A stretch of DNA of 34,435 bases from an uncultured Clostridia bacterium (lineage in GTDB: Bacteria; Bacillota; Clostridia; Lachnospirales; Lachnospiraceae): NCBI GenBank assembly GCA_946186175.1, contig CAMHMG010000001.1, positions 1 to 34,435 on the forward strand. Direction: 5' to 3'. The first letter of the stretch is position 1. Every line of letters starts with the position of its first letter. The notes beneath the pieces were generated by a model. That model was not told where the DNA came from, made no database searches, and worked only from the letters and a program-made list of their open reading frames with translations. Below, piece by piece: positions 1 to 23,412 of this stretch. A program made the position numbers and the translations under genes.

Positions 1-2160
1 TATCTCTCTTGTTGTAGTAACGTCGCCTCTATTGACAGGTCGATTACTGTCTATGCTATTATTATTCTTATCCTCCAAAAACTGTTTATCTTCTGTATTT
101 CCGGGCACAACCTTCACTATCTCAGTATTACTATTATCATCCTTTAATGCTCCCGAATTATTCTCTTTATTTCCAGACTCTACACTTCCTGTCTCTGTAG
201 CATTATTATCATCCTTTAATGCTCCCGAATTATTCTCTTTATTTCCGGGCTCTACACTTCCTGTCTCTGTAGCATTATCATCATCCTTTAATGCTCCCGA
301 ATTATTCTCTTTATTTTCTGACTCTACACTTCCCGTCTCTGTAGCACTATCATCACCCTTTAATGCTTCTGAATTATTCTCTGCGCTTTCCGATCCACCG
401 TTCTCTATCTCTGTATTATTACCGGCTTCTTCCTCTGTTTTTTGTGATGATATATCCCCATCGCTTTCCTGCATACCGGCATTATGATCATCATCCGTAG
501 CAGGTTGATCATCAAAAGGCAATTTGATCTCATCAACGACAGTGACCTCTTTCTCTCCTGTCTTATAATATATCCTCTCGTCCGACCGATTGACCACCAT
601 TACAGGACATATTCCAAGATAAGCAGTACATGTATTAATATGTCCGTAAACAGCCCTTACATCACCCTCAATTTCTTCCTCCAGCACATGCATATAATAT
701 CCGTCCTGAGTACTTGATGTACCAAGCCAATACGATAACCCTTTATCGTCAGAATCAGAATTTTCTTTATATTGTGAATAAGAATATGCTGTGGGATATC
801 TCCAGATCACAGCCATACTTTCCTTCTCTGTTAAAGTATTCTTTCCCTCCTGCATCCACTCACATATATCATCATATGAGGGCAGCATCAGCTTATCAGT
901 TGTTTCACCATTATATACACTATTCCCAAGTTTGCTTCCATTTTCATGAGTAGTATCCAATACTATTTGTTTTTCTGTATTAGAAAATGCATTGTTATAG
1001 AAATAATCATTAAGCCATCTTCTGATATCAGAAGAGCCCCAATATATTCCATTACGTTCCTGGCTTTCGTTATACTGACCATAATCCAATATAGAATCTG
1101 CCATCAGCACAAGCTTCGTCTCTGACGCATTCATTACCCGCCACTTAATAGGATCATTTACTTTACCTGACTTATCTGACTGTGGATAACTCCCCATTTC
1201 AACTATATCATATACGATTGTATGTCCATCATCTCCTAATGTCTCATAACGTGGTGAATCCACATTGTCTTCCACCCATACAGTATTGGCATATGGCGGG
1301 GCATACTCTGTATACGGCTTTACTACCACACTATCTGTTCTAAGAAGATTTTTTCCCAGATACTCCTTAGATACATAAACCATTGGGCATACACCTAACG
1401 TTATTCTACAAGTATCTATTGAAGAGTTTAACCATACACTCTCCTGGTTAAAACTATCATATTTATCCTGCTTTATATATCGATATATTCCATTCTGTTC
1501 TCCCGAAGTACGAACCCAGTATCCATCAAGCCCATCGGGTGATCCTCCTGCTTTTATCTGCATTAAATGTGCATATGCTGTAGCATATCTCCAATACAGC
1601 ATCTGTCGGTTATTTCTTACATAACCGGATTTTTCACCCTTATAATTCATGTTATATAATTCATTTACATCCGGCAGAAATACGGCATCTCTTACAACCT
1701 GATAATCATCACTTTCCGGGTAACCCACCACATGATCAACATAAGATAATGCCTTCTTTTCGTCAATAGAAAAAGCCTCATCTGCAAAATCCTCCATCAG
1801 CCAGGTTCTAAGTTCACAAGTATCCCAGTACTTACCGCCATTATCTACAGGGTCAAAAACTCTATAATCTAATATTGAATCTGCCCACAACAATACAGTC
1901 TGCCCGTTAACTTCCATTACTCTCCATTTGATAGGATCTTTAGTCTTTCCTGACGGATCACTTTGTGGATAAGTGCCAAATTCCACAATTTCATATTCCA
2001 TGTATTCCTGTCCGTCATCCTCCGTGACAAGCCATGGCTCTTTGAGATTGATCGGTGTAGCATTCCCGTTATCAAATGTCTCTGCAGAAGCAACACTGCC
2101 AAAGCATAAAGAGAACACCAATATAACCGCGATCAAACCACATATATAATTTTTTCTCAT
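1..2160 (-). CDS. Secreted repeat protein, 3'-partial (continues past window start): signal peptide, two DUF6273-like modules, acidic 24-aa tandem repeats
   Basis: Absent from the ORF track because there is no stop in the window. The minus-strand frame is open for all 720 codons from the ATG at 2160-2158 to base 1. Alternative in-frame ATGs lie at 2175 and 2190, and GGGTGG sits 7 nt before the 2175 ATG. The N-terminus MRKNYICGLIAVILVFSLCFGSVASA looks like a signal peptide. Two paralogous modules each contain G(T/S)YPQSD.SGK..DPIKWRVM...L.ADSILDY, which from memory matches the DUF6273 family. The C-terminal part is D/E/N/S-rich repeats. Confidence 0.8.
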   Translation of the reverse strand, partial: MRKNYICGLIAVILVFSLCFGSVASAETFDNGNATPINLKEPWLVTEDDGQEYMEYEIVEFGTYPQSDPSGKTKDPIKWRVMEVNGQTVLLWADSILDYRVFDPVDNGGKYWDTCELRTWLMEDFADEAFSIDEKKALSYVDHVVGYPESDDYQVVRDAVFLPDVNELYNMNYKGEKSGYVRNNRQMLYWRYATAYAHLMQIKAGGSPDGLDGYWVRTSGEQNGIYRYIKQDKYDSFNQESVWLNSSIDTCRITLGVCPMVYVSKEYLGKNLLRTDSVVVKPYTEYAPPYANTVWVEDNVDSPRYETLGDDGHTIVYDIVEMGSYPQSDKSGKVNDPIKWRVMNASETKLVLMADSILDYGQYNESQERNGIYWGSSDIRRWLNDYFYNNAFSNTEKQIVLDTTHENGSKLGNSVYNGETTDKLMLPSYDDICEWMQEGKNTLTEKESMAVIWRYPTAYSYSQYKENSDSDDKGLSYWLGTSSTQDGYYMHVLEEEIEGDVRAVYGHINTCTAYLGICPVMVVNRSDERIYYKTGEKEVTVVDEIKLPFDDQPATDDDHNAGMQESDGDISSQKTEEEAGNNTEIENGGSESAENNSEALKGDDSATETGSVESENKENNSGALKDDDNATETGSVEPGNKENNSGALKDDNNATETGSVESGNKENNSGALKDDNSNTEIVKVVPGNTEDKQFLEDKNNNSIDSNRPVNRGDVTTTREI
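96..420 (-). repeat. 72-bp in-frame tandem repeat (three near-identical units at 146-361 plus degenerate flanking units) encoding NKENNSGALKDDxNATETGSVExG
   Basis: The landmark aatgctcccgaatt recurs at 146, 218 and 290, and degenerately at 362, giving an exact 72-nt period. It lies inside the 1..2160 CDS. Confidence 0.9.
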
Positions 2161-2292
2161 ACGACCAATGCACATAATCAGACCACCCATATTTTAATTA
2201 CTATAATCGACATCTACAATTAATAGTTCACATTATAACACGAACTTAATAAATGTTCCATTAATTGACAAAAGCTTATAAGAATTTAAAAC

Positions 2293-2323
2293 TATAAAAA
2301 GCAAGGCACATCTACCCTGCTTT
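2293..2323 (-). terminator. Rho-independent terminator after the LytTR gene
   Basis: The minus strand reads AAGCAGGG-tagatgtg-CCTTGCTT followed by TTTTTAT. The stem is 8 bp with one mismatch. Confidence 0.6.
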
Positions 2324-2355
2324 CTATAAAATATATACGTTGATATTCTGATCTA

Positions 2356-3090
2356 TTACATATTATCTCTGACATACGATCTATATCCGGATTCAAACTT
2401 CTTCTTATAGGTCTCTCCCAAAGGGATGATCGTTCCTGACTGAAGTACTATTTCATTACCATCTACTTTTTTCACGTATCTCGTATTCACTATAAAACTT
2501 CCGTGGCACCTTTCAAATAACGAGTTTAACTGCTCATACATTTTTTTGATAGAAGAGTATACTGAATAGACCTTGTTGCATGTATGAACCTCTATCATTC
2601 TGTTTTTCCTCTCTATGTACTGAACATCCACCTGACAAATAATAATATGTCTTCTTCTGTATACTAATTCCAGATACTGGTTTTTAAGCCTTTCCTCATT
2701 ATCCTTGATCAAACGGCTAATGAAATGATCCAGCCATGCCTGAGCATCAGTCTTTTTACATAGACAATAATGTGTTACATCATAGATTTGGGGAATTTCA
2801 TTATAATCATCAACAAAATACATTATCGTGCAATCCGGTAACAACTTATTGATCAACATACCAATCTGAATCCCGTCAGGTCCTGCACTTTCATAACACA
2901 TATCAAGAAACAGAATATTGTAATCAAATTCATGCTTATTAATACTTTTAATAAGCTCCTCTACTCTGCATTGCTTTACCTTTGAAATCTGCAAAGGATA
3001 CTTTTTCTTAAGTATAGTCTCAATACTATTTGCAAATAATTTATCATCAAAGCACATCATTAACTTCATTTTATCATCAATCGCTTCCAT
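2356..3090 (-). CDS. Receiver-like domain + LytTR DNA-binding domain transcriptional regulator
   Basis: The C-terminus has the LytTR signature (ERCHGSFIVNTRYVKKVDGNEIVLQSGTIIPLGETYKKKF). The N-terminus is CheY-like, with CFDD and ILFLDM acidic positions, but the T/S position reads FVDD. The start may be the second ATG at 3069 (MKLMMCFDD). There is no adjacent histidine kinase. Confidence 0.8.
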   Translation of the reverse strand: MEAIDDKMKLMMCFDDKLFANSIETILKKKYPLQISKVKQCRVEELIKSINKHEFDYNILFLDMCYESAGPDGIQIGMLINKLLPDCTIMYFVDDYNEIPQIYDVTHYCLCKKTDAQAWLDHFISRLIKDNEERLKNQYLELVYRRRHIIICQVDVQYIERKNRMIEVHTCNKVYSVYSSIKKMYEQLNSLFERCHGSFIVNTRYVKKVDGNEIVLQSGTIIPLGETYKKKFESGYRSYVRDNM

Positions 3091-3156
3091 TTTGCCTAAT
3101 ATTCAAAATCGATTGATTCTATCACATAATCAAATAAAAATGTGTTCAATTGTTCC

Positions 3157-3186
3157 ATAATGCAACAAAAATGTATCATATAGCAA
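3157..3186 (-). promoter_or_regulatory. Candidate LytTR-type operator: 9-bp direct repeats TTGCTATAT / TTGCATTAT separated by 12 bp
   Basis: The minus strand reads TTGCTATAT(3186-3178)-gatacatttttg-TTGCATTAT(3165-3157), a 21-bp period. GATTAT and TAGAAT -10-like hexamers lie 25 and 35 nt downstream. It sits upstream of the 2356..3090 LytTR gene and shares the KTGCWWWAT core with the site at 7522-7551. Confidence 0.45.
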
Positions 3187-3198
3187 CACTTATATCGA

Positions 3199-3402
3199 TT
3201 ATCCTTTTTGCCTCTTCATCGCTTCTTTGACAGAATTGGCTAATCCCTGTTCTAATGTAACCGCCACATCATCAATAACCTCGCGTTCCATCGGTCTGCT
3301 ATCAGTATCCTGTGGCTTTTTGTCATATACTGCACAGTGCGGACACGATGCAAACTTGTCGGCATCATAATAATGTTTTTTCTTACATTGTACAAGCTTC
3401 AT
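3199..3402 (-). CDS. Small zinc-ribbon-like protein (67 aa)
   Basis: The sequence MKLVQCKKKHYYDADKFASCPHC gives a C-x3-H...C-x2-C arrangement. GAGAGGA lies 7 nt before the ATG, which starts 13 nt after the stop of the upstream gene. The remainder is charged with no recognisable domain. Confidence 0.6.
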   Translation of the reverse strand: MKLVQCKKKHYYDADKFASCPHCAVYDKKPQDTDSRPMEREVIDDVAVTLEQGLANSVKEAMKRQKG

Positions 3403-3415
3403 ACCCTTATCCTCT

Positions 3416-4420
3416 CTATCCTAATTCAAATTTTTGTGATGACATTTCCGTACAAAATATATCTCCTGTCCTTAATTTTACTATCTCTCCATCTAATATC
3501 CTCTGCTTTTCATTTATAATAATGTTATTACCCCCTGACACATTACGCAGACTATAATTTTTGTCAGCCTGGTGGTAAATGATAACTCCCTGTTTTTCAC
3601 CAACAACATCATCATTAATAACTATATCTGAATATCTGCCATCCCTTCCAAAAATTATCTCTGCTTCAGGCTTTATTCGGAATATCACCCCATCAAGAGG
3701 TCCACCTACACCAATTATTGCTCCATATCTATTCCACTTACGCAGGCTTTTCCATATTCCACCATCACCCTGCTCATAATAATCCCGACCGACCGGGATT
3801 TTCTCGCCCTTTATTATGATATACTCCCTATGTACCTCTTCTACATACTTAGCATTTACCAGAAATGAGCGATGGCATCTCACAAATCCTTTGTCCAGCA
3901 ATTCTTTTTCAAGATCTCTTATTGTCATGTAAAAATGAATGTCCTCACTCTGACCATGCGGATATATTATCCTCTTTCTACTTTCAAAATAATTGATACG
4001 ATCCAGATCAAGCTCATAAGTTTCCTTATTGACCATAACAGTAAATGTATTTTTATCAAAAGATTTAAATTCCAGATATTTATCCATAATACTTTTGATA
4101 TTTTTTTGTTTTACAGGGTAAGTAAGTATTGCAAATGCACGATAAAATACCAATTCTTCTAAGCATTTATTCTTTGGAATAAGCAGTATCATATCTATGT
4201 TGTTATTATGCTTGTTTATTTTTTTGATGGTATTAAATGACTTATCAATATCACAAAATAGAACATCAGGTACATCATTATTGCTCTCTATTGACCTTAC
4301 CATTTCTTCACTATCCCGATAAATGTATATTATTTTGTTTACACTGTCCTTATCCTCAGATATATATTGTTTAATTCTTTCAGCCACCCTATTATCTGCA
4401 CATATCCCAATCCTTATCAT
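3416..4420 (-). CDS. Degenerate receiver - LytTR - FHA three-domain fusion protein
   Basis: N-terminus: a CheY-like fold signature with a single acidic residue (ICADN), LFCDID, and P instead of T/S (ILLIPKN). Middle: LytTR (FVRCHRSFLVNAKYVEEVHREYIIIKGEKIPVGRDY). C-terminus: FHA-like (IIFGRDGRYSDIVINDDV...YSLRNVSGGNNIIINE...GDIF), but the canonical S-x-x-H reads G-E-K-Q. The RBS GGTGAGGG precedes the ATG. Confidence 0.75.
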   Translation of the reverse strand: MIRIGICADNRVAERIKQYISEDKDSVNKIIYIYRDSEEMVRSIESNNDVPDVLFCDIDKSFNTIKKINKHNNNIDMILLIPKNKCLEELVFYRAFAILTYPVKQKNIKSIMDKYLEFKSFDKNTFTVMVNKETYELDLDRINYFESRKRIIYPHGQSEDIHFYMTIRDLEKELLDKGFVRCHRSFLVNAKYVEEVHREYIIIKGEKIPVGRDYYEQGDGGIWKSLRKWNRYGAIIGVGGPLDGVIFRIKPEAEIIFGRDGRYSDIVINDDVVGEKQGVIIYHQADKNYSLRNVSGGNNIIINEKQRILDGEIVKLRTGDIFCTEMSSQKFELG

Positions 4421-4442
4421 ATACCCTCACCAATCCCATTTT

Positions 4443-4751
4443 CTACATTAGTAAAATCTGTATCCCGTCCTGACCAATGTTCAATATACTGTTTCTTTCA
4501 AATAATACAGTCTCACCATTAGGAAGTCTTCTATTGTCTGCATCATAGGTTCCGTGCTTGGATTGATCGGTTATTTTATAGCAATTTTCTTTATCATCGT
4601 ATTGTATTTTTACATGAATCCTACTTATCCATGATGATTCGATTACAAATTGACAAAAATGTACATCTCTTCCTATAACCAACTCCTCTTGGGCTTTAAG
4701 TACTATCTCAGCTCCCTTGTACTTCCCATTAAGAATTTTGATACCTCCCAA
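4443..4751 (-). CDS. Stand-alone FHA domain protein (102 aa, TTG start)
   Basis: Canonical FHA residues are present: VIGRD, ISRIHV (S-x-x-H), DQSKHGTY and NIGQ. AAGGAG lies 9 nt upstream of the TTG at 4751. Confidence 0.85.
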   Translation of the reverse strand: MGGIKILNGKYKGAEIVLKAQEELVIGRDVHFCQFVIESSWISRIHVKIQYDDKENCYKITDQSKHGTYDADNRRLPNGETVLFERNSILNIGQDGIQILLM

Positions 4752-4787
4752 TTGGTATTTCTCCTTTCGTTAATTAAATCTTCGTTA

Positions 4788-5303
4788 CTAATCTTCAATA
4801 TATATTACTTCTTCCGTATCATTATTATCAGCTGATGTATCGCTATTACTTTCCGAAGCCGCCTCTGACGTTTTCTTTTTCGATTCGCTTTTCTTTTCAC
4901 TTTTCTTTTTATTGTCAGACACCTTTGCTTCGGTCTTGGTTTCTGTATCTTTATTTTTTACTGCTGTCTTTGAAGCGTTTCTATTAGTTGCTGTTGTGTT
5001 ATTAACCGATTTCTCGGTATTGATTTCGTTGGGGGAGTTTTCAATTGTTATCTCCGTAGTTATCTCAGTAGTTGTATCACTTTCACTTTTCCCTTGCTCT
5101 TTTTTATCAAGATTTGATCCTTTATCCTCTGTTGTGATCATATTGATAGCAATTCCTTTATTATCAATACTATCAAGAAGTCTCTTTTCTTTATGTATGA
5201 TCCCTTTATTCAGGTTATGATCAGATGTTTTTTTAACATATGTAAAGATAAAGTTAAGGATAGTGTCCACAACAACAAACAAACTACAGCATATACATGC
5301 CAT
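4788..5303 (-). CDS. T/S/K/E-rich low-complexity ORF; probably the -1-frame continuation (extracytoplasmic tail) of the 5210..6307 gene rather than an independent gene
   Basis: There is no SD before its ATG. It overlaps the 3' end of 5210..6307 by 94 nt in the -1 frame, and an A7 run (5228-5234) lies in the overlap. Confidence 0.45.
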   Translation of the reverse strand: MACICCSLFVVVDTILNFIFTYVKKTSDHNLNKGIIHKEKRLLDSIDNKGIAINMITTEDKGSNLDKKEQGKSESDTTTEITTEITIENSPNEINTEKSVNNTTATNRNASKTAVKNKDTETKTEAKVSDNKKKSEKKSESKKKTSEAASESNSDTSADNNDTEEVIYIED

Positions 5304-6307
5304 CCATTAATCTTTTTTGTTATTACATTGCTTTTATCTTTATGAAGTTCATCAAGAAAATCCGATATCGTCAGTGTTCTTTCTGTTATATCGGTACATA
5401 AAGCATGCATTAATGCATCTTCCGCTTCGTCATCTATCTCAATCCCATATTGAGAGGGTCTTCGCAACAAATCTTCTTTAGACCTTGATACAGCCTCTTT
5501 GGGTGTAACACCTGTTATACACTTATACATTGTGGCAGCCAATGCATATACATCCGTCCATGCCCCCTGATTTCCGGAACTCATATACTGTTCTGCAGGT
5601 GAAAAACCCGGATCTATAATAACTGATAAACTCTTGGTAGCAATAGCTGATGCATTTCTTGCAGCCCCGAAATCTGTAAGTTTAGCTTTACCATCTCCGT
5701 CAATAAATATTGTGTCGGGGGATATATTTCTATGAATCAAACCTTCCGAGTGTATCTTGATCAGTGATATTGCCACCGGCTCCAACAAATTGATGGTTTC
5801 TTCCACCGGTAACTTTCCTTTTTCAAATATATAATCCGACAGACTTCGTCCACTTACTGCCTCCATAATCTGATATGCCGTATTATTATCTTGAAATACA
5901 TCATATATTCTTGTTATTCCGTCAATATTACGAAACCTGGCAAGTTTTTTTGCCTCTCCTATAAATGCCTTCAGACCATCTTCATAAGGCATTTGAAATT
6001 CTTTAGAATACAGATCAACACTTATTAAATCTTTGCCTCTTACCGCATACTCTAATGGAAAAAATTCTTTAATGGCAATTGTTTGTTGAAGAATCTTATC
6101 AAACCCTGAATATATGATGCTATCTCCTCTATACTCTTCCGAAACACCAATAAAATATCTGTTTTCCAACCATGTACCGGGTGTAATATGATAAGATTCT
6201 CTTTTATTGTCAAATGGATTCCGCCCACAACTTGGACACTTTATCTGAGATTCCACAATCTCCTGCATGCAGTAAAAACAACGTTTCATCCTATATTCTT
6301 TCTCCAC
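5210..6307 (-). CDS. Zinc-ribbon + Hanks-type kinase-fold protein, predicted pseudokinase, C-terminal TM helix
   Basis: It has an N-terminal CxxC...CPSCG ribbon. VAIK-like IAIKEF, DFG (LTDFGAAR) and APE-like SPAEQ are kept. The G-loop is degenerate (GVSEEYRGDS versus GCGGFG in the paralogue). The catalytic loop is HRNISPDT instead of HRDxxxxN. The TM segment is WHVYAVVCLLLWTLSLTLSL. The likely true start is the ATG at 6289 (MKRCFYC); the track start at 6307 is GTG. Confidence 0.8.
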   Translation of the reverse strand: MEKEYRMKRCFYCMQEIVESQIKCPSCGRNPFDNKRESYHITPGTWLENRYFIGVSEEYRGDSIIYSGFDKILQQTIAIKEFFPLEYAVRGKDLISVDLYSKEFQMPYEDGLKAFIGEAKKLARFRNIDGITRIYDVFQDNNTAYQIMEAVSGRSLSDYIFEKGKLPVEETINLLEPVAISLIKIHSEGLIHRNISPDTIFIDGDGKAKLTDFGAARNASAIATKSLSVIIDPGFSPAEQYMSSGNQGAWTDVYALAATMYKCITGVTPKEAVSRSKEDLLRRPSQYGIEIDDEAEDALMHALCTDITERTLTISDFLDELHKDKSNVITKKINGWHVYAVVCLLLWTLSLTLSLHMLKKHLIIT

Positions 6308-6322
6308 AATCAGATTTACCTA

Positions 6323-7420
6323 TTACCAACCTTGAGTATATATATACACAAATACTATAAGCATGACAGGTAAGATGAGGAATATTGCTGCTACTATTCT
6401 TTTTTTTCTCTCTCTTATTTCATTTTTTTTTTTTACTGAAACTAATGAAACAACTTTTTTCTTCTCTAATACTTCCAGCAGCTCTTCTGCATTTTTAAAC
6501 CTGTCCTCAACATCTAACATCATCAATTTCATAACTGCATTATTAATATAATCCGGAATTACATTATCCAGAGCATCAATATACTCCTTTGGCTGTTTTA
6601 TATGATCATTCTTAAGTCTTCCTATTGACTCCATCGGAACGACACCGGTCAAGGCCCGATAAAAAGTAGCTCCTAAAGCATATAGATCTGTCCATGGACC
6701 TTGCTCCTCTTTAATTCCGTACTGCTCGGGTGGTGCATATCCAACTTTAACAATTGCTTTTGCCACGCCTTCCGACGGAAGCACAAGTCTTGCGGCACCA
6801 AAATCCAATAACTTAACTTTTCCATTACTACACAAAAAAATATTGTCAGGACTAATATCTCTATGAAGGATTCTCTCTTTATGCAATGACTTCAATCCAT
6901 TTGCAATCGATTGTATAACCCACAGACAATCGTTTACTGACATTCTTCCGTCATTGACATCAAGATACTGCTTTAAAGACAATCCTTCTAAATATTCCAT
7001 AACAATATATGCTGTCTGATTAAGTTCATAATAATTATAAACATTAACTATATTTTCATGCTTTGAAAATTTGGCCAAAGTTCTGGCTTCTGCCATAAAA
7101 CGATATAAACCTGATCTATATTCCCGCTCATTCTCTTTAATATTTACATAAACTTCTCTTCCTGTTTCAGCCCTTCTGACCATGCCACGAGGAAAATATT
7201 CTTTAACCGCTACAACAACATCCAACATTGTATCATAAGCTTTATATATTATCCCAAAGCCTCCACAGCCCAACGCCACTCCTATATAATAACGATCAAG
7301 AAGCATTGTTCCTGCCGCAAGATAATTACTGTTATTGTCTTTTCCATCGACAATATTGCCACAATGCGGACAGACATCATATTCACTTGGATATTCTTTC
7401 ATACAGCGATAACAGCGCAA
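6323..7420 (-). CDS. Zinc-ribbon + Hanks-type Ser/Thr protein kinase (catalytically complete), C-terminal TM anchor
   Basis: It has CxxC...CPHCG at the N-terminus. Kinase motifs are G-loop GCGGFG, VAVKEY, HRDISPDN, DFGAAR and APPEQ. The C-terminal helix is IVAAIFLILPVMLIVFVYIY. It has a TTG start with AAAGGAA 8 nt upstream. Confidence 0.9.
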   Translation of the reverse strand: MRCYRCMKEYPSEYDVCPHCGNIVDGKDNNSNYLAAGTMLLDRYYIGVALGCGGFGIIYKAYDTMLDVVVAVKEYFPRGMVRRAETGREVYVNIKENEREYRSGLYRFMAEARTLAKFSKHENIVNVYNYYELNQTAYIVMEYLEGLSLKQYLDVNDGRMSVNDCLWVIQSIANGLKSLHKERILHRDISPDNIFLCSNGKVKLLDFGAARLVLPSEGVAKAIVKVGYAPPEQYGIKEEQGPWTDLYALGATFYRALTGVVPMESIGRLKNDHIKQPKEYIDALDNVIPDYINNAVMKLMMLDVEDRFKNAEELLEVLEKKKVVSLVSVKKKNEIRERKKRIVAAIFLILPVMLIVFVYIYTQGW

Positions 7421-7521
7421 TTAATCATTCCTTTAACTATCAATGTAATTAAAAACACAAAATGTATACTGTCAGTCGACATAAATATATTATCATAGCT
7501 TTTACCATATTTCTACCAAAT

Positions 7522-7551
7522 ATTTTGCAAGGATAGACTTTAATTTTGCAC
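7522..7551 (-). promoter_or_regulatory. Candidate LytTR-type operator: 9-bp direct repeats GTGCAAAAT / TTGCAAAAT separated by 12 bp, upstream of the kinase operon
   Basis: The minus strand reads GTGCAAAAT(7551-7543)-taaagtctatcc-TTGCAAAAT(7530-7522), an exact 21-bp period. TATGATAAT (7497-7489) lies 24 nt downstream, and the operon start (TTG 7420) about 70 nt beyond that. Confidence 0.45.
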
Positions 7552-7586: not shown

Positions 7587-8021
7587 TCACTTGAAATTCA
7601 CCGGAACATCATAAAGCTCACATTTAACCGCAATCCATGGGTAGCTGACCATTCCGTCGTCAAGGGTTGTCGTCTCCTTTGTTGTCAGATCCGTATCCAC
7701 AAATATTGCATTTTCAGTGAGATACAGTTCTGACATAACCACGTTAAGATCAATCCTGTCCTGTGCCCCATATCCCACTACTATGTACAGATAATCATTG
7801 GTGCGATAGGTGAACTTAAATGGTTCCTTTTTCTTTTTATTAATTAAATTTATCAATTCATGTGGCAGCCTGCTCTCATCACACACTGTGTAATCAAGGT
7901 CCTTTAACTTTTCCTCACTGGTTTTATCAAGTTTACAGCCCGTAAGTGCTGACAGCAGAAAAATCATATATATTGCCGCATAGATTATCAATCTTCTTTT
8001 TTTCTTACACAACAACTTCAT
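7587..8021 (-). CDS. Lipoprotein (possibly PrcB C-terminal-domain-like)
   Basis: The signal peptide has the lipobox LSALTGC. The remaining layout (DYTV...LP..L..LI...YIVVGYG...SYPWIAVK) resembles PrcB_C from memory only. Confidence 0.6.
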   Translation of the reverse strand: MKLLCKKKRRLIIYAAIYMIFLLSALTGCKLDKTSEEKLKDLDYTVCDESRLPHELINLINKKKKEPFKFTYRTNDYLYIVVGYGAQDRIDLNVVMSELYLTENAIFVDTDLTTKETTTLDDGMVSYPWIAVKCELYDVPVNFK

Positions 8022-8262: not shown

Positions 8263-8868
8263 TTATTTGAATTGATGATCTCCCAGACTATACTTTGCAT
8301 TAGGAATATATCTTGAGAAGTACAAATAATTCTTCATTTCCTTTTCTTTTCCACTCTTCTTAATAGTTGTTGAACCCTCAAGTGCTTCCTTAGCAGCCTT
8401 AAGACAGCTTGGCATCTCACCCTTGAACTTCCCGTCGCGCTTATACTTATCATATAATGACAGCGCCCTTCCAAAGCTTCCGTTTCTTACAGGTGAAAAC
8501 TGTCCCCTTTGATAAATTACACTTTTGATTGAATTCGGAAATTCCTTATCTCTCTTCCGGTTCATAACCACTATACCAACTGCCTTCTGCCCCGCATAGC
8601 TTTCTCCACGTGCCTCACAGTAAATGATACATGTCATATAACGAAGTTCTTTTGCGGTATAGCTTTTCTTTTTTTTTCTTTTCTTGTACTCCTTCTTTTT
8701 ATCCGAAGGTGTACTGCTTAATTTAATCAGATTTTCTTTGAGGTTAATCAAACAAGTATTTTGCTTTAATTCTTCTTTAGTAGCAGCTTTTGTTGTGATA
8801 TCCTGACTTAAGATTGCTGTCAGGCATAATGTAACCCACACCACAATTACTGTTACTATTCTTTTCAT
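8263..8868 (-). CDS. SleB/CwlJ-family cell wall hydrolase (Hydrolase_2) with signal peptide
   Basis: The core CEARGESYAGQKAVGIVVMNRKRDKEFPNSIKSVIYQRGQFSPV matches the EARGE...AV..VV.NR...FP....V....QF signature. An N-terminal hydrophobic leader is present. Confidence 0.85.
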   Translation of the reverse strand: MKRIVTVIVVWVTLCLTAILSQDITTKAATKEELKQNTCLINLKENLIKLSSTPSDKKKEYKKRKKKKSYTAKELRYMTCIIYCEARGESYAGQKAVGIVVMNRKRDKEFPNSIKSVIYQRGQFSPVRNGSFGRALSLYDKYKRDGKFKGEMPSCLKAAKEALEGSTTIKKSGKEKEMKNYLYFSRYIPNAKYSLGDHQFK

Positions 8869-11824: not shown

Positions 11825-13438
11825 TTAAGATTGTTCATTACTATACACATTTGAAAACAGATTTTCGTATTCATTTGAAAAGTTATATTTAATCTTAAAT
11901 CGATTGTCTTCGTAAACAGTTATCTCATTAATCATCTCAACAATGATATCTCTGTCAAGCTTGGTTATCTCTTTAAGTTCCAACAACCTCTTAACCCACT
12001 CATTTTCAAAATAATCTGTAGAATTATCTGTTTTCTTTTCTTCAAGTACACTTATCTGCTTTGATAGCAACTCTTCTTTTAAGATGTAGTCCTTGCGATA
12101 GGAAAGAAATTCATCTTTGGTTATCAGATCGTCTTTATAATCCTCATAAATTGACTTCTTAAGGTTTGTTACACGTTCAAGTTCTTTATTAAGTCTGTTG
12201 ATTTCCGCCTCAATAATCTTTGTATTATCGGGCTTTTTCACGGTCTTTGCTTCTACGGATGCTTTTAACAGATCGACATTCTTGATCATAGTATTTAAAT
12301 CATTTAACACAACATCCTCTAATACTTCCATCGGTATTGAATGAGGCGTACAGTATTCTTTTCCGACTCGTTTATACGTACCACAAACCATCCTATATGC
12401 CATTGAGTTGTCCTTGCGACGCCACATATTCTTCATCATATGACGTCCGCAATCACCACACTTGACATATCCTGCAAAAATATTGACGTTATTTGTAAGC
12501 CCTATGTCACGTTTCTTATACTTTAATAAATGTTGCGCTCTTTCCCAAGTCTCCTTATCAATTATAGGCTCATGGGTATTCTCAACTACAATCCACTCAG
12601 TCTTATCCAGCATTTTTTGTTTGCCTCTCATGACCTGATGATGTCGATGTTGTACCATATTGCCAATATACATTTCTTTATTAAGAATTGCGTTGATTGT
12701 GGAGTATGTCCAATATGATGTACTTTTCAAACGGTGTGCATTCTTATAATTAAATCCGTTACTTGCCTTGTACTCAGACGGACATAAAATGCCTTCAGCA
12801 TTTAATATTTTCGCAATACGTTGTTTGCCAAAGCCTTGAACGAACAAGTCAAATATCTTTCTAACAACCGATGCTGCATATTCATCAATGATCAGTTTAT
12901 TCTTATTATCAGGCGCTTTCTTATAACCATAACAGGCAAAAGCACCGATGAATTCACCGGATGTCTGTTTTGCTTTGACAGTCGCTTGTATCTTATTGGA
13001 TATATCCTTGGCATATTGCTCATTGAAAAGGTTTTTGATCGGTAACAACATATCATAAGCCTGCTTCTTGCTATCAATCCCATCCACTATTGATATGAAG
13101 CGCACTCCCTTTTCCGGAAAGTAACGCTCAAGATATCTTCCGGTATCTATGTAATCACGTCCAAATCTCGAAAGATCTTTTACAATAACACAATCAATAT
13201 CACCGTTCTCGATAGCTTCTATCATTCTCTGAAATGCAGGACGATTGAAATTCGTTCCTGTATAACCATCATCAATGTAGAACTCAACCGACTTAATATC
13301 ATCATGACTTGATATATATTCATTTATGAGTTTTCTCTGATTGCCAACACTGTTACTTTCTTCCTTATCACCGTCCTCACAAGATAATCTGATGTATGCT
13401 GCCACGTTAAATAAGATGTTATATTCCATATAATTCAC
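11825..13438 (-). CDS. Large serine recombinase (resolvase catalytic domain + recombinase domain + zinc ribbon + coiled coil)
   Basis: The catalytic domain reads AAYIRLSCED...NQ...DDGYTGTNFNRPAFQRMI...VIVKDLSRFGRDY, and the Cys cluster is CGDCGRHM...CGTYKR...CTPH. The likely true start is the ATG at 13429 (MEYNILF), with AGGTGA 5 nt upstream; the track start is GTG. Confidence 0.92.
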   Translation of the reverse strand: MNYMEYNILFNVAAYIRLSCEDGDKEESNSVGNQRKLINEYISSHDDIKSVEFYIDDGYTGTNFNRPAFQRMIEAIENGDIDCVIVKDLSRFGRDYIDTGRYLERYFPEKGVRFISIVDGIDSKKQAYDMLLPIKNLFNEQYAKDISNKIQATVKAKQTSGEFIGAFACYGYKKAPDNKNKLIIDEYAASVVRKIFDLFVQGFGKQRIAKILNAEGILCPSEYKASNGFNYKNAHRLKSTSYWTYSTINAILNKEMYIGNMVQHRHHQVMRGKQKMLDKTEWIVVENTHEPIIDKETWERAQHLLKYKKRDIGLTNNVNIFAGYVKCGDCGRHMMKNMWRRKDNSMAYRMVCGTYKRVGKEYCTPHSIPMEVLEDVVLNDLNTMIKNVDLLKASVEAKTVKKPDNTKIIEAEINRLNKELERVTNLKKSIYEDYKDDLITKDEFLSYRKDYILKEELLSKQISVLEEKKTDNSTDYFENEWVKRLLELKEITKLDRDIIVEMINEITVYEDNRFKIKYNFSNEYENLFSNVYSNEQS

Positions 13439-17769: not shown

Positions 17770-18546
17770 TCATAACACCGCCCATGTATATTGTCTCATA
17801 TACCCATCAAGTTCTTCCCTGCTATATTGTTTTCTTCCTTCAAGATAATCATACAGGTCACAGCTTATCTTCTCTTTATTGAGACTGTAACATCCTTTAT
17901 TGTCATTGATTATTATATCTTCAAGTCCGTAAGCACGAAATGCAGTCCTTATGTCGCTTATGATATTTCTTATATACCGGCGTTTCTTTTCCGTATCCTC
18001 TTCCTCGGACCATAGAAGATAACGAAGTTCTTCCTCGGAAACAAGAGCGCCTCTTTTATCGATCAGATATGCAAGCACCTCTTTACACTGTGACCTCTTG
18101 AAATCAATCGGTATTCCGCCGTACAACACCTCAAATTGTCCGAAACACTTTACCTTCAATTCCGATATTGGAAATCTCAGATTATCAACGGCTTTCTGCA
18201 TTTTCTTCTCATTTACGGGCTTCATAATAAACCCGCTGACATACATTTCAAGAATATCAACCGCGTACTTATCGTGTCCGGTAATAAATATTATATTGGT
18301 GCGGGGACTGATACTTTGAATACTCTTTGCAACCTCAAGTCCGTTTTTATACGGCATTTCAATATCAAGAAATGCTATCTGTATGCCTTCGGAAGTTTCA
18401 AACGCCATCTCCTGTTGAATTATTTTTATAACCTCATCCGAGTTTTGTGCAAGAAAGAATTCCGTGTTATCTCCAAGTACCTTCTTTGCTGTCCTGTGTA
18501 TATCTTTTAATATAAAAGGCTCGTCATCTGCTATAAGACATTTCAT
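17770..18546 (-). CDS. Response regulator: CheY-like receiver + SARP/OmpR-type winged-helix DNA-binding domain
   Basis: The receiver motifs are canonical: LIADDE, AFLDIEMP, IIFITGH and IMKP. The C-terminus reads CFGQFEVLYGGIPIDFKRSQCKEVLAYLIDKRGALVSEEELRYLLW. Confidence 0.85.
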   Translation of the reverse strand: MKCLIADDEPFILKDIHRTAKKVLGDNTEFFLAQNSDEVIKIIQQEMAFETSEGIQIAFLDIEMPYKNGLEVAKSIQSISPRTNIIFITGHDKYAVDILEMYVSGFIMKPVNEKKMQKAVDNLRFPISELKVKCFGQFEVLYGGIPIDFKRSQCKEVLAYLIDKRGALVSEEELRYLLWSEEEDTEKKRRYIRNIISDIRTAFRAYGLEDIIINDNKGCYSLNKEKISCDLYDYLEGRKQYSREELDGYMRQYTWAVL

Positions 18547-18554
18547 GTTATCTC

Positions 18555-19835
18555 TTATCTCCCATCATGTTTACTTCTTGTATCAGGTATCTCTAATGTA
18601 ACGACAGTTCCTTTCCCTGCTTCACTGTTTACTGTTACCTCTCCACCTAATATCCGCTCAAATCTGTCACGGACATTCTTAATTCCCACATGCTCTACTC
18701 CGTCAAATTCAACATTATCCACATCAAAGCCTTTGCCGTCGTCAATTATCTTAATAATTATGTTTCCGGCATTTTCTTCTGTAGATATGGTAATCGTACC
18801 CTTTTCACCCTTCATGCTTATTCCGTATCGGACTGCATTTTCCACGATAGTCTGCACCGACAGGGGCGGAACACTGAAATCCGTAACAGTAAAATTCCTG
18901 ACAAGCTCTATCCTTCCCGGAAATCTCATCCTTTCAAGATACAGATAATTTTCAACCGATTCCATCTCCTTATCAAATGATACAAGACGCATATCTTCAA
19001 TCTGCTTTATATTCTCCTGAAGATATCCCGAAAAATGATCTATCATTTCCACCGCTTTATCCGCATCCTCATAACAAAGGCTTCTTATGACAGCAAGATT
19101 ACTGTTGATAAAATGCGGTCTTATCTGCGCCATCAAAAGATTGCATCTGTTATGCTCTAATGCAAGACTGCTCTCATGTAACTGCTCCTGCACATCAACA
19201 TACTGGATTGCAGCCAGATAGAAATAATATGTGAATAACTCGACCGCAATGACAGCAGGCAGATAACCGTTCGGCATATAATTCAACGTAAGGAGCTGTG
19301 CAAGGAAAATGGTCAGCATCATAAAGACAACTATGATACCCTTTGAGCGGTTCCTTCCCCTTAACAGTCTGATTGAATATACAGCAATTATTATTACATA
19401 AAAATCTTCAACCACAAATGCAAGGTGATTAAGCGGTCCGCCATGATAGGAATAATTATCTTCATAAGTATATACCAGTGCACTTCCGGATAAGTCTATT
19501 ACATTTACTATCATATTGAATATCTGCGGTATCGCGATAAGGAACTTATGCTTTATATCGCAGATAGTATAAAGAAAAATAAGGGCAACCGCCGGATAAA
19601 GCGTGTATATAAGCATTGCTTTATAAAACAGCAGACGATAATCAAGGTTATGAGTATCTATCCAGACCTCCGAAAACTCAAGCAACGAGATCACAAGCGC
19701 CATAAGAGACAATATATACAGATACCCTGTCTTCTCTATCTTTGCATTCCTGTTCACCATCAATATCACAATGACAGCCGCTACAAGAAGAACTGTCGGG
19801 TAATTATTGACAGTATATTCAGTAAAAAAATTCAT
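18555..19835 (-). CDS. Sensor histidine kinase, LytS/YehU-type (multi-TM sensor + His_kinase + HATPase_c)
   Basis: There are about six N-terminal TM helices. The H-box reads AQIRPHFINSNLAVI, and the ATPase blocks read VENAVRYG and IIDDGKGF...GIKNVRDR...GKGT. Confidence 0.88.
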   Translation of the reverse strand: MNFFTEYTVNNYPTVLLVAAVIVILMVNRNAKIEKTGYLYILSLMALVISLLEFSEVWIDTHNLDYRLLFYKAMLIYTLYPAVALIFLYTICDIKHKFLIAIPQIFNMIVNVIDLSGSALVYTYEDNYSYHGGPLNHLAFVVEDFYVIIIAVYSIRLLRGRNRSKGIIVVFMMLTIFLAQLLTLNYMPNGYLPAVIAVELFTYYFYLAAIQYVDVQEQLHESSLALEHNRCNLLMAQIRPHFINSNLAVIRSLCYEDADKAVEMIDHFSGYLQENIKQIEDMRLVSFDKEMESVENYLYLERMRFPGRIELVRNFTVTDFSVPPLSVQTIVENAVRYGISMKGEKGTITISTEENAGNIIIKIIDDGKGFDVDNVEFDGVEHVGIKNVRDRFERILGGEVTVNSEAGKGTVVTLEIPDTRSKHDGR

Positions 19836-20112: not shown

Positions 20113-21536
20113 TGAGTTTTGAAGTGAACAAATTAAAATAATCCAGCTAACCCTTGTGGTTGCTGGTATTTTTTGTCAATATTTTGTATTTTGGTATAGC
20201 GTAGTTTAGCGAAGTGTGTTATAATATATTTATCCAGCGAGAAAAGGGTGTTATTATTGGCACAAAGAAAACGAAGAAAAACAAGGACTGTTGTTGACTC
20301 TGCTGCAAGAAATGCTGCTGTATTGTCAGATGGGTGCAATCCGGAGTTTGTTAAGGGTGCTGAGTTTGATGGGATTTTTGAAATCCCCATAATCTAGAAA
20401 CCGAAAAAATACCAAATCCCAAAACAGCTTGTTCCTTTCATATGCGCCCTATCATAAACAGGATAAAAAAGGATTTCTCAGATACCAGGATCATCTTTGT
20501 CGCAGACAGGGGACTCAACACATCAGATAACATTTACTATCTTAATGGTGATAATAAATGTGTCAATAACCAGCGTGACGGATATGTATATGGTCGGTCC
20601 GTAAGAGGTGCAGATGCCGAGTTTAAGAAATGGGTGCTTTCCGGAAAATATATCACCGAGAAGATAACTGATGATGACGGCAGTGAGGTAACATTTACGC
20701 ATAAGAGCCGCATTTATCCTAAAGAACTGCGTGTAAATGTTTCAAAGCCCGGACAGACGAAAAAGTCAAAAAAGACCGTAAAAGTCGATCAGAAGCAGAT
20801 GGTATACTACTCGGAAAAATATGCAAAGAAACAGCGTGCAGACCGTGAAGTCATGATACAGCGTGCTAAGGATCTGATAAACCATCCAAAGAAATATGAC
20901 AAAGTAACAGCTGCAGGTTCTGCCTCTTATGTCCTGGGCATTTCTTTTAGCAAAGAAACGGGAGAGATCGTTGACAAAAAGGCTCTGGCTCTTAATCAGG
21001 AAAAGATAGATGAAGAGCAGAAATATGACGGCTACTACTCAATCGTGACAAGTGAGCTTGAAATGACCGATCATGAGATGCGTGATGTTTACAGAGGGCT
21101 TGCCAGAATAGAGGATACATTTAAGATATCGAAGTCCGAGTTCGATTCAAGACCTGTTTTTGTAAGGACAAATGAACACATAGATGCGCACTTTGTAACA
21201 TGTTTTACCGCACTTGTTCTTATAAGACTTTTACAGGCAAAACTTGATAACATTTTTCCTGTAGGACGGATAATTAATGCCCTCAAAAGTTACAACTGTA
21301 TTCCGATAGATGCAAACACTTACCAGTTTACTTATTATGACGAGATACTTGAAAAGATAAGCAAAGTATTTGACATGGACCTTGATAATAAATACCGTAC
21401 ACGCCAGCAGATACAGCGTTTTCTTCGGTATTGAAAATTTTTTGAGATATTTGAAAAAAATCCCAGTACGCCATACAGACAAATCGCTGTAAACCTTTAT
21501 TTATAAGGGCTACTGCGATTTTGCTTCAAAACTTGA
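20113..21536 (+). mobile_element. Decayed IS (IS1634/IS4-type) remnant with candidate terminal inverted repeats
   Basis: A 10-nt inverted match AGTTTTGAAG occurs at 20115-20124 and 21533-21524. A short N-terminal-like ORF lies at 20257-20397 (TTG start, LAQRKRRKTRTVVD...FDGIFEIPII*), followed out of frame by the transposase C-terminal part. Boundaries are tentative. Confidence 0.4.
20442..21434 (+). pseudogene. IS1634-family (IS4-like DDE) transposase, C-terminal two-thirds only
   Basis: It carries IIFVADRGLNTSDN (second catalytic D region). It also carries KYDGYYSIVTSE...YRGLARIEDTFKISKSEFDSRPVFVRTNEHIDAHFVTCFTALVLIRLL (Y-R-E region). The N-terminal DNA-binding part and the first D region are missing. 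Confidence 0.7.
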
Positions 21537-23227: not shown

Positions 23228-23344
23228 ATGCTCACCCCTTCGTATTATCTGTTCATTTATCCGTAGTATAGCATATATAAGCACTTTTATCCACTGAAAA
23301 AAAGATTCCCCGTATTTCACAAATATTATTTCAATTCTGTTAAA

Positions 23345-23412
23345 AATGAAAAAACAATTCTCCGGCACCCTGCAAACGTTAATACAAACATTTTAGCAAG
23401 ATACCGGAGAAT
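23345..23412 (-). terminator. Putative terminator of the giant gene (9-bp stem ATTCTCCGG/CCGGAGAAT, large loop, U-tract)
   Basis: The minus strand reads ATTCTCCGG-(38-nt loop)-CCGGAGAAT followed by TGTTTTTTCATTTTT. Confidence 0.45.

Follow-up and report, generated by a model that had tools for sequence, protein, structure and literature searches.

On balance, and with moderate confidence, we read a cassette of six genes in a 34,435-nucleotide stretch of DNA from an uncultured Clostridia bacterium (assembly GCA_946186175.1, contig CAMHMG010000001.1, positions 1 to 34,435; hereafter the window) as a dedicated transmembrane Ser/Thr-kinase module with LytTR transcription factors as its output. 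The arrangement suggests a path from signal to transcription in which the usual histidine kinase has no part. LytTR regulators are textbook outputs of histidine-kinase quorum-sensing systems, and in Firmicutes they control virulence, bacteriocin production, competence and biofilm. The carrier of the cassette is a rumen or gut Lachnospiraceae bacterium, and the cassette itself is conserved and uncharacterised.

All of the cassette genes lie on the minus strand. Their order is K1 (the predicted active kinase), K2 (a pseudokinase), a stand-alone FHA protein, LF (a receiver-like/LytTR/FHA fusion), SM (a protein of 67 amino acids, aa) and L2 (a receiver/LytTR protein), and they are followed by the gene of a DUF6273 surface protein. 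The intergenic gaps measure 13-36 nt from K1 through SM and 108-129 nt before L2. Profile scores are to be read against the curated Pfam cut-offs (31.7 bits for Pkinase, 20.7 for FHA and 22.6 for LytTR), and Response_reg, the receiver (REC) profile, was searched to E<=0.1. Loci from other assemblies are given as L numbers. The six genes of the cassette are:

6323..7420, minus strand: K1, Hanks-type Ser/Thr kinase of 365 aa (Pkinase 9e-38, 130.6 bits)
4788..6289, minus strand: K2, membrane pseudokinase, split here by a frameshift into 6289..5210 and 5303..4788
4443..4751, minus strand: stand-alone FHA protein of 102 aa (FHA 3.5e-10, 40.6 bits)
4420..3416, minus strand: LF, 334 aa, with LytTR (residues 133-216, 6.4e-19, 68.4 bits) and FHA (residues 256-322, 9.8e-6, 26.4 bits) matches
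3199..3402, minus strand: SM, 67-aa zinc-ribbon protein with a C-x3-H...C-P-H-C motif
2356..3069, minus strand: L2, REC-LytTR regulator (LytTR 3e-16, 59.9 bits), whose likely start is Met8 of a 244-aa open reading frame (ORF; 3090..2356)

The first-pass annotation of this DNA had named a zinc-ribbon Hanks kinase, a paralogous pseudokinase, an FHA protein, a LytTR/FHA fusion, a zinc-ribbon mini-protein and a second LytTR protein, and these assignments were upheld by profile searches, motifs and AlphaFold models, the FHA and LytTR calls both passing the Pfam cut-offs. Its count of seven ORFs was wrong, since the additional T-rich ORF is the C-terminal tail of K2; the seventh ORF is therefore excluded.

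Conservation of the cassette and its linkage to Hanks kinases

The fusion in LF is rare: a search of 5.8 billion proteins returned seven full-length close relatives and one truncated relative, all from uncultured Lachnospiraceae. The order K1-K2-FHA-LF-SM-L2-DUF6273 was identical in L001-L003 (LF 50% identical), in L004-L005 (64%) and in L007 (62%, RUG13856). The flanks differ among the lineages (valS; ppk/YodL-LPD16, resembling an integrative and conjugative element, ICE; Sua5-RpiB-hydrolase-PrcB), and the cassette is kept in four diverged Lachnospiraceae lineages. A scan of genome contigs gave a single species-level match, Lachnospiraceae RUG13856.

The fusion of LytTR to FHA extends to a wider family. 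Among the top 150 matches of a HMMER search of 1.84 billion representatives, there were about 20 REC(-like)-LytTR-FHA proteins (336-384 aa) and about nine LytTR-FHA proteins (210-237 aa), and at least 29 clusters at 50% identity were represented. The database names of the family members are generic ('LytTR family transcriptional regulator'), and all of them come from metagenome-assembled genomes. When the broad alignment A2 was used as a profile against the 5.8-billion-protein index, only the narrow family came back, within the limits of the word index.

We sampled the gene contexts of five distant (REC)-LytTR-FHA genes, at about 30% identity. A Pkinase gene was present within one to three genes in all five, FHA adaptors were present in four and PP2C in two, and a large secreted repeat protein (DUF6273, LRR_5/Big_2/RicinB or Flg_new) lay beside or inside the operon in every case. 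As a control pool, we used generic LytTR loci from a metagenome contig scan with alignment A5, which had returned 78 of these and two true relatives. When the 39 generic loci of at least 10 kb were examined, a kinase was found within 10 kb in 9/39 and within 3 kb in about 1/39. The synteny of the cassette and the kinase linkage in 5/5 distant loci therefore strongly support a coupling of the kinase to LytTR. Hence, the first-pass proposal that a Hanks kinase feeds the LytTR regulators is favoured by neighbourhood conservation, both in the order kept among diverged lineages and in the kinases that adjoin the distant LytTR-FHA genes; the accompanying idea, that contact between FHA and phosphothreonine (pThr) takes place on the LytTR fusion itself, is unlikely in this lineage, where the pThr residues are lost (see below).

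No cognate histidine kinase had been seen in the operon, and we likewise found none in the cassette, either in the window or at the orthologous loci, nor within 10 kb in L001 and L004. A histidine kinase of the HPK10 type, a pheromone precursor and processing or export genes were also absent from the cassette genes of the window, L001, L004, L008 and L009.

Active and degenerate components of the module

Judged by its motifs, K1 should be a catalytically competent Hanks-type Ser/Thr kinase. It consists of an N-terminal CxxC..CxxC zinc ribbon, a kinase domain and a C-terminal transmembrane (TM) anchor, and is tail-anchored with an outside portion of about 4 residues. When aligned to PknB, its catalytic motifs are complete (GCGGFG, VAVK, the C-helix Glu in AEAR, HRDISPDN, DFG and APPE), and GxGxFG, VAVK, HRD..N, DFG and APPE are retained throughout the five K1 orthologues, which are 64-79% identical.

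K2 (ORF 6307/6289..5210; Pkinase 2.7e-23, 83 bits) carries, in this order, a zinc ribbon, a kinase-like domain, a TM segment and a Thr/Glu/Lys-rich extracytoplasmic tail of about 150 aa, which ends in ...EEVIYIED. HRD is changed to HRN in all five K2 orthologues, including that of L010 (about 46% identity), and in the narrow K2 family, the window included, the catalytic-loop Asn is replaced by Thr and the Gly-loop is lost; the L010 K2 additionally reads NFG. On the evidence of these residues, K2 is a pseudokinase, fixed anciently across the orthologues. All seven pseudokinase families of the bacterial Ser/Thr kinase (STK) atlas vary at the VAIK Lys, whereas K2 retains it. The activation segment of K2 holds a conserved T-K-(S/T)-L-S-V, which is a candidate phospho-site, and FHA domains commonly prefer Leu at pT+3.

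The K2 tail, a low-complexity Thr/Glu/Lys stalk, is the only sizeable extracytoplasmic segment of the module. A separate T-rich protein (5303..4788) was rejected: the ORF shares 94 nt with K2, read in a different frame, and its product is a homologue of the C-terminal tails of 472-524-aa K2 orthologues, including the terminal ...EE(I/V)xYIED. Because the tail comes after the TM segment, it is extracytoplasmic and not a substrate for the kinase in the cytoplasm. The extreme C-terminus is conserved as (E/D)-(I/V/L)-x-(I/F/Y)-I-E-D-COOH in the window (4788-4810) and in the K2 proteins of L004, L007, L001 and L010. The same motif closes the kinases of L014 and L015, and the stalk before it is variable in length and of low complexity. 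One possibility is that a surface partner docks on this peptide. In the distant modules, the single, catalytically intact kinases share the K2-like tail and ending (e.g., ...FNVIED). That the tail is common to the pseudokinase and to single active kinases suggests a duplication of the kinase and a division of labour in the present lineage.

The frameshift in K2 falls within a homopolymer:

5228..5234, minus strand (T7 on the plus strand): A7 run, A8 in near-identical assemblies; a one-base deletion that cuts K2 just after the TM segment

The run is A8 in L008 and L009 (independent assemblies, 99.85-99.9% identical to the window) and in L016 (LF protein 93% identical). In L008 and L009, K2 is one intact 500-aa gene, and the deletion is the sole indel in 10 kb relative to these two. 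An exact look-up of the truncated K2 of the window gave zero matches, which fits a truncation specific to the assembly of the window. In the frame of K2 the run reads A_AAA_AAA, and programmed -1 frameshifting, slippage or phase variation at this site is possible. The K2 orthologues of L004, L007 and L001 have an A7-A8 run at the equivalent position, and K1 has an in-frame A12 run (T12 on the plus strand, 6423-6434) just ahead of its TM-coding segment. Such long homopolymers, found in both kinases where Lys codons flank the TM segment, might serve as contingency tracts for phase variation, or they might reflect nothing more than the AT-richness of Lys codons.

We considered whether the cassette could be a conflict or anti-phage defence module in which a kinase sensor, similar to the single-gene kinase system PD-T4-6 or to Stk2, triggers a transcriptional or abortive response. 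K1 and K2 match the PD-T4-6 and mad6 kinase models of PADLOC (3e-54 and 2.8e-33), the genomic context is variable, with ICE-like genes upstream in L004 and a serine recombinase and a transposase in the window, and DUF6273, a C-type-lectin-like fold, serves as a scaffold of phage diversity-generating-retroelement targets (PMC10743442). However, only the generic kinase domain is covered by the PADLOC matches, none of the other four proteins (FHA, LF, SM and L2) was matched by PADLOC, and the NCBIfam MAD6 score (158 bits) is far under the cut-off of 460. The cassette moreover lacks a nuclease or toxin effector, and the recombinase is more than 4 kb off and not syntenic in the other loci. We therefore regard a defence role as highly improbable. 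Membership in the PD-T4-6/MADS kinase systems was rejected, as the similarity is confined to the kinase domain and no full-length match exceeded the cut-off.

In the AlphaFold model of LF (27-sequence alignment, pLDDT 86), residues 1-121 form a (beta-alpha)5 domain, residues 125-215 a LytTR domain and residues 233-333 an FHA sandwich. Full-length ComE was its best structural match in Foldseek (2e-11), which also returned the LytTR domain of AgrA and FHA domains, the FHA of Bdellovibrio DgcB (6hc0/6hc1) being among the best matches to the FHA domain of LF. The three domains of LF are placed as follows:

4058..4420, minus strand: pseudo-receiver, residues 1-121; CheY-like (beta-alpha)5 fold, Foldseek matches to ComE and REC domains
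3776..4048, minus strand: LytTR DNA-binding domain, residues 125-215; Foldseek match to AgrA LytTR, TM-score 0.73-0.76
3416..3724, minus strand: pseudo-FHA, residues 233-334 (range with the stop codon); Foldseek matches to FHA, TM-score 0.7-0.83

LF and L2 both gave weak full-length AgrA-type matches, and neither matched Response_reg at E<=0.1. In the LF receiver, the DD pair is D-N, and the family members show D/D/E/N/D/D/D in the phospho-Asp column; Thr/Ser is not conserved at its position (Ile/Leu), and the Lys region is variable in the narrow-family alignment. Going by these positions, the receiver of LF is degenerate, and despite its fold LF was not classed as a phospho-Asp response regulator. 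The signature of the fused FHA has decayed as well. In the seven members of the subfamily, Gln stands in place of its His in 7/7, while the Ser survives in 1/7 and the Arg of G-R in 2/7. The canonical G-R / S-R-x-H / N-G is found in 18/19 distant LytTR-FHA proteins, and the remaining one, P0013, reads N-S for N-G. As the residues for pThr contact are missing from the fused FHA, direct contact between FHA and pThr on the LytTR protein is unlikely in this lineage. The fused-FHA region of LF is nevertheless highly conserved, with K276 and Q277 newly invariant, and this strong conservation points to a repurposed pseudo-FHA rather than to a decaying domain.

The stand-alone FHA protein, aligned to Rv1747 FHA-1, CT664 and NIPP1, has an essentially canonical pocket (G-R, S-R-I-H), in which the N-G position reads H-G-T as in NIPP1, and the pocket residues are kept in the orthologues. 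From these residues, it alone in the cassette looks competent for reading pThr. SM gave no Pfam match in the profile search, and a search of the 5.8-billion-protein index with SM matched only the narrow family, again within the limits of the word index. One Thr of SM is invariant in all six lineages compared, in the context (D/N/V/E)-T-(D/Q)-(S/D) (D-T-D-S in the window), and a second Thr (V/I-T-L-E) is found within the narrow family. The FHA adaptors of the distant modules open with a zinc ribbon, M-x-L-x-K-C-x-N-G-H-x-Y-x-x-D-K-x-x-S-C-P-x-C, which is homologous to SM, and such N-termini are seen in the adaptors of L011, L014 and L015. Hence, the adaptor of the window is split into SM, its detached zinc-ribbon/linker half, and the FHA protein, and these two flank LF.

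The number of degenerate parts raises the question of whether the module is decaying in this strain and has no current signalling function. The frameshift that truncates K2 and the degenerate FHA and receiver sites of LF would be in line with such a decay. Against it, the A8 run is present in three close relatives, with K2 intact there, the remaining genes are all intact, and the truncated K2 retains its kinase-like domain and TM segment. The 'dead' domains are, moreover, highly conserved across orthologues that are 50-65% identical and have acquired the new invariant residues K276 and Q277, which indicates purifying selection. Decay without function is thus very unlikely in our view.

The second LytTR protein, L2, gave a partial AgrA match (residues 8-215), and its AlphaFold2 model, built from an alignment of generic REC-LytTR proteins, shows REC and LytTR domains (pLDDT 92). 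D15, D16, D63 and K113 of the receiver pocket are invariant in four orthologues, and two of these residues, D63 and K113, coincide with a near-invariant Asp and Lys, respectively, in an alignment with 60 ordinary REC-LytTR proteins. The conserved Thr/Ser of receivers is absent from L2, and no histidine kinase is adjacent. A two-component pair is encoded elsewhere in the window, about 11 kb from the cassette, by a histidine kinase gene (18555-19835, minus strand; His_kinase, PF06580, and HATPase_c) and a response regulator gene (17770-18546, minus strand; REC and a weak Trans_reg_C match). This pair is no part of the cassette, and it has no syntenic counterpart in the related loci. Kinases of the His_kinase (PF06580) type often partner LytTR regulators.

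These features bear on another explanation, namely that the LytTR proteins are orphan or atypical regulators run mainly by an unlinked histidine kinase or by small phosphodonors, and that the kinase and FHA proteins act post-translationally at the envelope, in the export, anchoring or modification of DUF6273 or other surface proteins, so that the two sets are co-located because they share a target. The DD, D and K of the L2 receiver are retained, the Asp of LF is kept in 5/7 family members, a His_kinase-type kinase is present in the window, and large surface proteins lie inside or beside every module; sets of FHA, STK and PP2C proteins are also known to regulate secretion machines post-translationally, e.g., PpkA-Fha1 of the type VI secretion system. 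However, a response regulator of its own lies next to the histidine kinase of the window, the orthologous loci lack this kinase, the catalytic residues of the receiver are lost in most family members, and the cassette contains no secretion-machine genes. In the family at large, FHA is fused to LytTR with canonical pThr residues and a kinase is adjacent in 5/5 loci. We consider this explanation unlikely.

Putative operator, proposed pathway and known parallels

A candidate site of action for the LytTR proteins lies in the longest gap of the cassette:

3116..3178, minus strand: conserved L2 promoter region with two imperfect direct repeats, TG(G/A)(A/T)ACA(T/A)(T/C)T, whose starts are 21 bp apart

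The proximal repeat is 32-33 bp upstream of an extended -10 element, TGATAGAAT, and the repeats have a LytTR-like 9+12+9 layout. In an alignment of four lineages (A3), TACA-(17)-TATGGAACA-(~24)-TGATA(G/A)AAT is invariant ahead of L2. A search of the window for TGGAACAWYT gave 18 matches with at most one mismatch against 11.4 expected, a number that 3/100 shuffles reached and that is not significant. As the similarity of the repeats and the motif count are both near chance, it is their cross-species conservation only that speaks for an operator, and on this ground the repeats may be a putative LytTR operator.

The pathway that we propose for the kinase-to-LytTR module would start at the membrane, where K2 would pair with K1, and a surface cue sensed through the K2 tail would alter the activity of K1. 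K1 would then phosphorylate Thr sites within the module, with T-K-S-L-S-V of K2 and D-T-D-S and V-T-L-E of SM as candidates, and the stand-alone FHA protein would read these pThr marks on K2 and/or SM. The resulting FHA complex could hold or release LF, possibly through the phospho-independent surfaces of its pseudo-FHA and pseudo-receiver, and this step would control the localisation or dimerisation of LF. Freed or dimerised LF would bind the 21-bp-spaced TGGAACA-type repeats before L2, and L2 and/or LF would drive the gene of the DUF6273 surface protein. Relatives with a simpler module might achieve this directly, by means of a single active kinase that has the same tail and a regulator whose FHA is canonical; in the lineage of the window, the kinase would have been duplicated and its roles split, and the fused FHA and receiver left to decay.

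Several observations weigh against this pathway. We infer all coupling of K1 to the LytTR proteins from gene linkage. The fused FHA of the window reads G-R / G-E-K-Q / N-N (S-R-x-H changed to G-E-K-Q), and as the Ser and His, and mostly also the Arg, are missing, the most direct wiring is inapplicable here. K2 is truncated in the window, and, as the first-pass annotation had pointed out for the operon, the cassette holds no PP2C to reset the system, which is also the case in the orthologous loci. Since the DD/D/K pocket of L2 is intact, an input to L2 from an unlinked kinase through His-Asp transfer is possible, and the histidine kinase 11 kb away likewise makes some His-Asp input possible. 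As for the DNA sites, the similarity within the L2 repeat pair (6-9/11) lies within the background distribution for AT-rich DNA, and the TGGAACATTT box before DUF6273, which is the same as the box of the L2 promoter, is common to L004, the closest relative, only.

A further-reaching form of the kinase-to-LytTR pathway would have it built largely from 'dead' domains, with an active kinase and a pseudokinase co-receptor, a split adaptor, a repurposed LytTR factor and a surface-sensing stalk. The stalk of K2 and its ...IYIED end may then contact the Lys-rich C-terminal domain of the lectin-like DUF6273 protein, the pseudo-receiver and pseudo-FHA would be repurposed as phospho-independent docking surfaces, and the A8 (K2) and A12 (K1) tracts might add phase-variable switching. 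Taken as a whole, this form is doubtful. If it were true, modules of LytTR-FHA proteins and Hanks kinases would be an unrecognised and widespread alternative to two-component systems for the control of surface adhesins in gut and rumen Clostridia.

Among the closest parallels, together with StkP-RitR and Stk1-AlgR, is PknH-EmbR of Mycobacterium tuberculosis, in which the FHA of EmbR is required for the interaction of kinase and regulator and for phosphorylation (PMC4601284). There, as is proposed for the cassette, the signal of a transmembrane Hanks kinase passes directly to a DNA-binding regulator with an FHA at its C-terminus, and EmbR2, a non-phosphorylatable paralogue of EmbR that acts as a decoy, parallels the 'dead' components of the cassette. 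EmbR, however, is a SARP (OmpR-type winged helix-turn-helix and BTAD) and has no receiver, and its system includes no pseudokinase, zinc-ribbon adaptor or stand-alone FHA, whereas the fused FHA in the lineage of the window has no pThr pocket. Membership in the EmbR-type SARP-FHA proteins was rejected, as the DNA-binding domain is LytTR and neither BTAD nor Trans_reg_C is present.

Receiver-type transcription factors under a Hanks kinase, which replaces or adds to His-Asp transfer, are also found in StkP/PhpP-RitR and Stk1-CovR. RitR is an orphan regulated by StkP, without phospho-Asp and without a cognate histidine kinase (PMC4601284), and LF resembles it in that the phospho-Asp, Thr and Lys positions are unconserved and the cassette has no cognate histidine kinase. 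Unlike LF, RitR and CovR are of the OmpR/PhoB type, are encoded apart from the kinase and have no FHA, and their kinase is a pleiotropic PASTA kinase. In Pseudomonas aeruginosa, the Hanks-type kinase Stk1 has been reported to phosphorylate the REC-LytTR regulator AlgR (PMC11197903). AlgR differs from the regulators of the cassette in having a cognate histidine kinase (AlgZ/FimS) and a normal receiver, with neither an FHA fusion nor a linkage to the kinase.

LF and L2 share their REC-LytTR fold with AgrA and ComE, and the putative operator has a LytTR-like layout, with two direct repeats of about 9 bp, a 12-bp spacer and an overlap with the -35 region. In contrast to the AgrA and ComE systems, the cassette has no HPK10 histidine kinase, peptide-pheromone gene or ABC exporter, the receiver of LF is degenerate, and the input would come from Ser/Thr kinase and FHA proteins; membership in the Agr/Com-type quorum-sensing systems was rejected because the histidine kinase, pheromone gene and exporter are missing from the cassette. 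DgcB is a further parallel, as its FHA is fused to the output and regulates it by binding a phosphopeptide, the phosphorylated tail; unlike LF, its output is a diguanylate cyclase and not DNA-binding.

In the library searched, Stk1-AlgR apart, no paper was found to connect LytTR to FHA or to a dedicated Hanks kinase, and the bacterial STK atlas has no mention of LytTR or of zinc-ribbon kinases. This agrees with the earlier remark that no characterised system has the same architecture, as we found no characterised homologue. The domain architecture and the composition of the module are undescribed, although the logic of a Hanks kinase acting on a transcription factor is already known; this is not a new signalling principle, since PknH-EmbR and StkP-RitR already show such wiring. 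What the module adds is a family of (REC)-LytTR-FHA proteins whose genes, in uncultured Clostridia of gut and rumen, stay tied to those of Hanks kinases, FHA adaptors and large surface proteins. This suggests a second, so far unstudied way for signals to reach LytTR factors. The family also offers a natural series, from canonical to fully degenerate FHA and receiver domains and from a single kinase to a kinase/pseudokinase pair, that is useful for the study of pseudo-domain evolution, and it suggests how commensal Lachnospiraceae may regulate lectin-like adhesins.

The surface protein gene and genomic surroundings

The gene downstream of L2 had been described as secreted and DUF6273-like, in agreement with the two DUF6273 matches that we obtained. 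The features around it and at the upstream end of the cassette are:

1..2160, minus strand: secreted protein with two DUF6273 domains (DUF6273 8.7e-25); incomplete in the window, 931 aa in L009
2232..2260, minus strand: candidate DUF6273 promoter; -35 position occupied by a TGGAACATTT box, -10 element TGTTATAAT; weak
2292..2329, minus strand: intrinsic terminator after L2; stem and T-run conserved in L004 and L007
7492..7519, minus strand: candidate sigma-70 promoter of the K1 operon, TTGGTA-16-TATGAT; a consensus match only

The candidate promoter of K1 falls in a block upstream of K1 that is conserved with L007. By eye, the DUF6273 protein can be divided into a putative signal peptide, a spacer of acidic repeats, Ig-like domains and a putative Lys-rich C-terminal domain. 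Its gene is syntenic in all of the orthologous loci, and in L010 it lies inside the operon, between K2 and FHA, with gaps of 3-10 nt; from this position, its product may belong to the module itself and not be merely a target of it. The cassette probably controls this neighbouring lectin-like surface protein.

Tandem acidic repeats (…NSGALKDD-NATETGSVE…) occupy the C-terminal part of the DUF6273 ORF (window 1-500, minus strand). The number of repeat copies differs between the window and the near-identical L009, and BLAST gave extra repeat-offset segment pairs at 91-92% identity.

Upstream of the cassette are genes for a PrcB_C-domain protein (7587-8021, minus strand), a lipoprotein by eye, and a SleB-like cell-wall hydrolase (Hydrolase_2; 8263-8868, minus strand), and neither neighbour is conserved beside the cassette in the other lineages. 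Farther along are a large serine recombinase (Resolvase, Recombinase and Zn_ribbon_recom; 11825-13438, minus strand) and a DDE transposase-like ORF (20442-21434, plus strand). Their position, between the cassette region and a giant surface-protein gene, hints at mobile DNA nearby. The giant protein (3303 aa; 23460-33371, minus strand) has eight Flg_new (Listeria-Bacteroides) repeats and Big_2 domains. It is encoded beside an AAA-ATPase_like/PDDEXK_9 protein (21590-23368, minus strand), and another Big_2 protein lies at 33399-34418 (minus strand). In L001, a pair consisting of an AAA-ATPase_like/PDDEXK_9 protein and a giant Flg_new/LRR_5 protein directly follows the DUF6273 gene.

Rfam gave no structured RNA in the window. 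Riboswitches of the c-di-GMP-I class (RF01051, 52-58 bits) were found in L001 (16807-16882) and L007 (17109-17184 and 19945-20020), with none in the window or L004. They sit in a leader of about 260 nt (80% identity between the species), and the genes behind this leader come just after the cassette and the DUF6273 gene; in L001, the product is a Flg_new/LRR_5 surface protein of 2058 aa. Each of the L001 and L007 aptamers has, about 70 nt upstream, a GTATGGAACAA box with the same core as the box of the L2 promoter.

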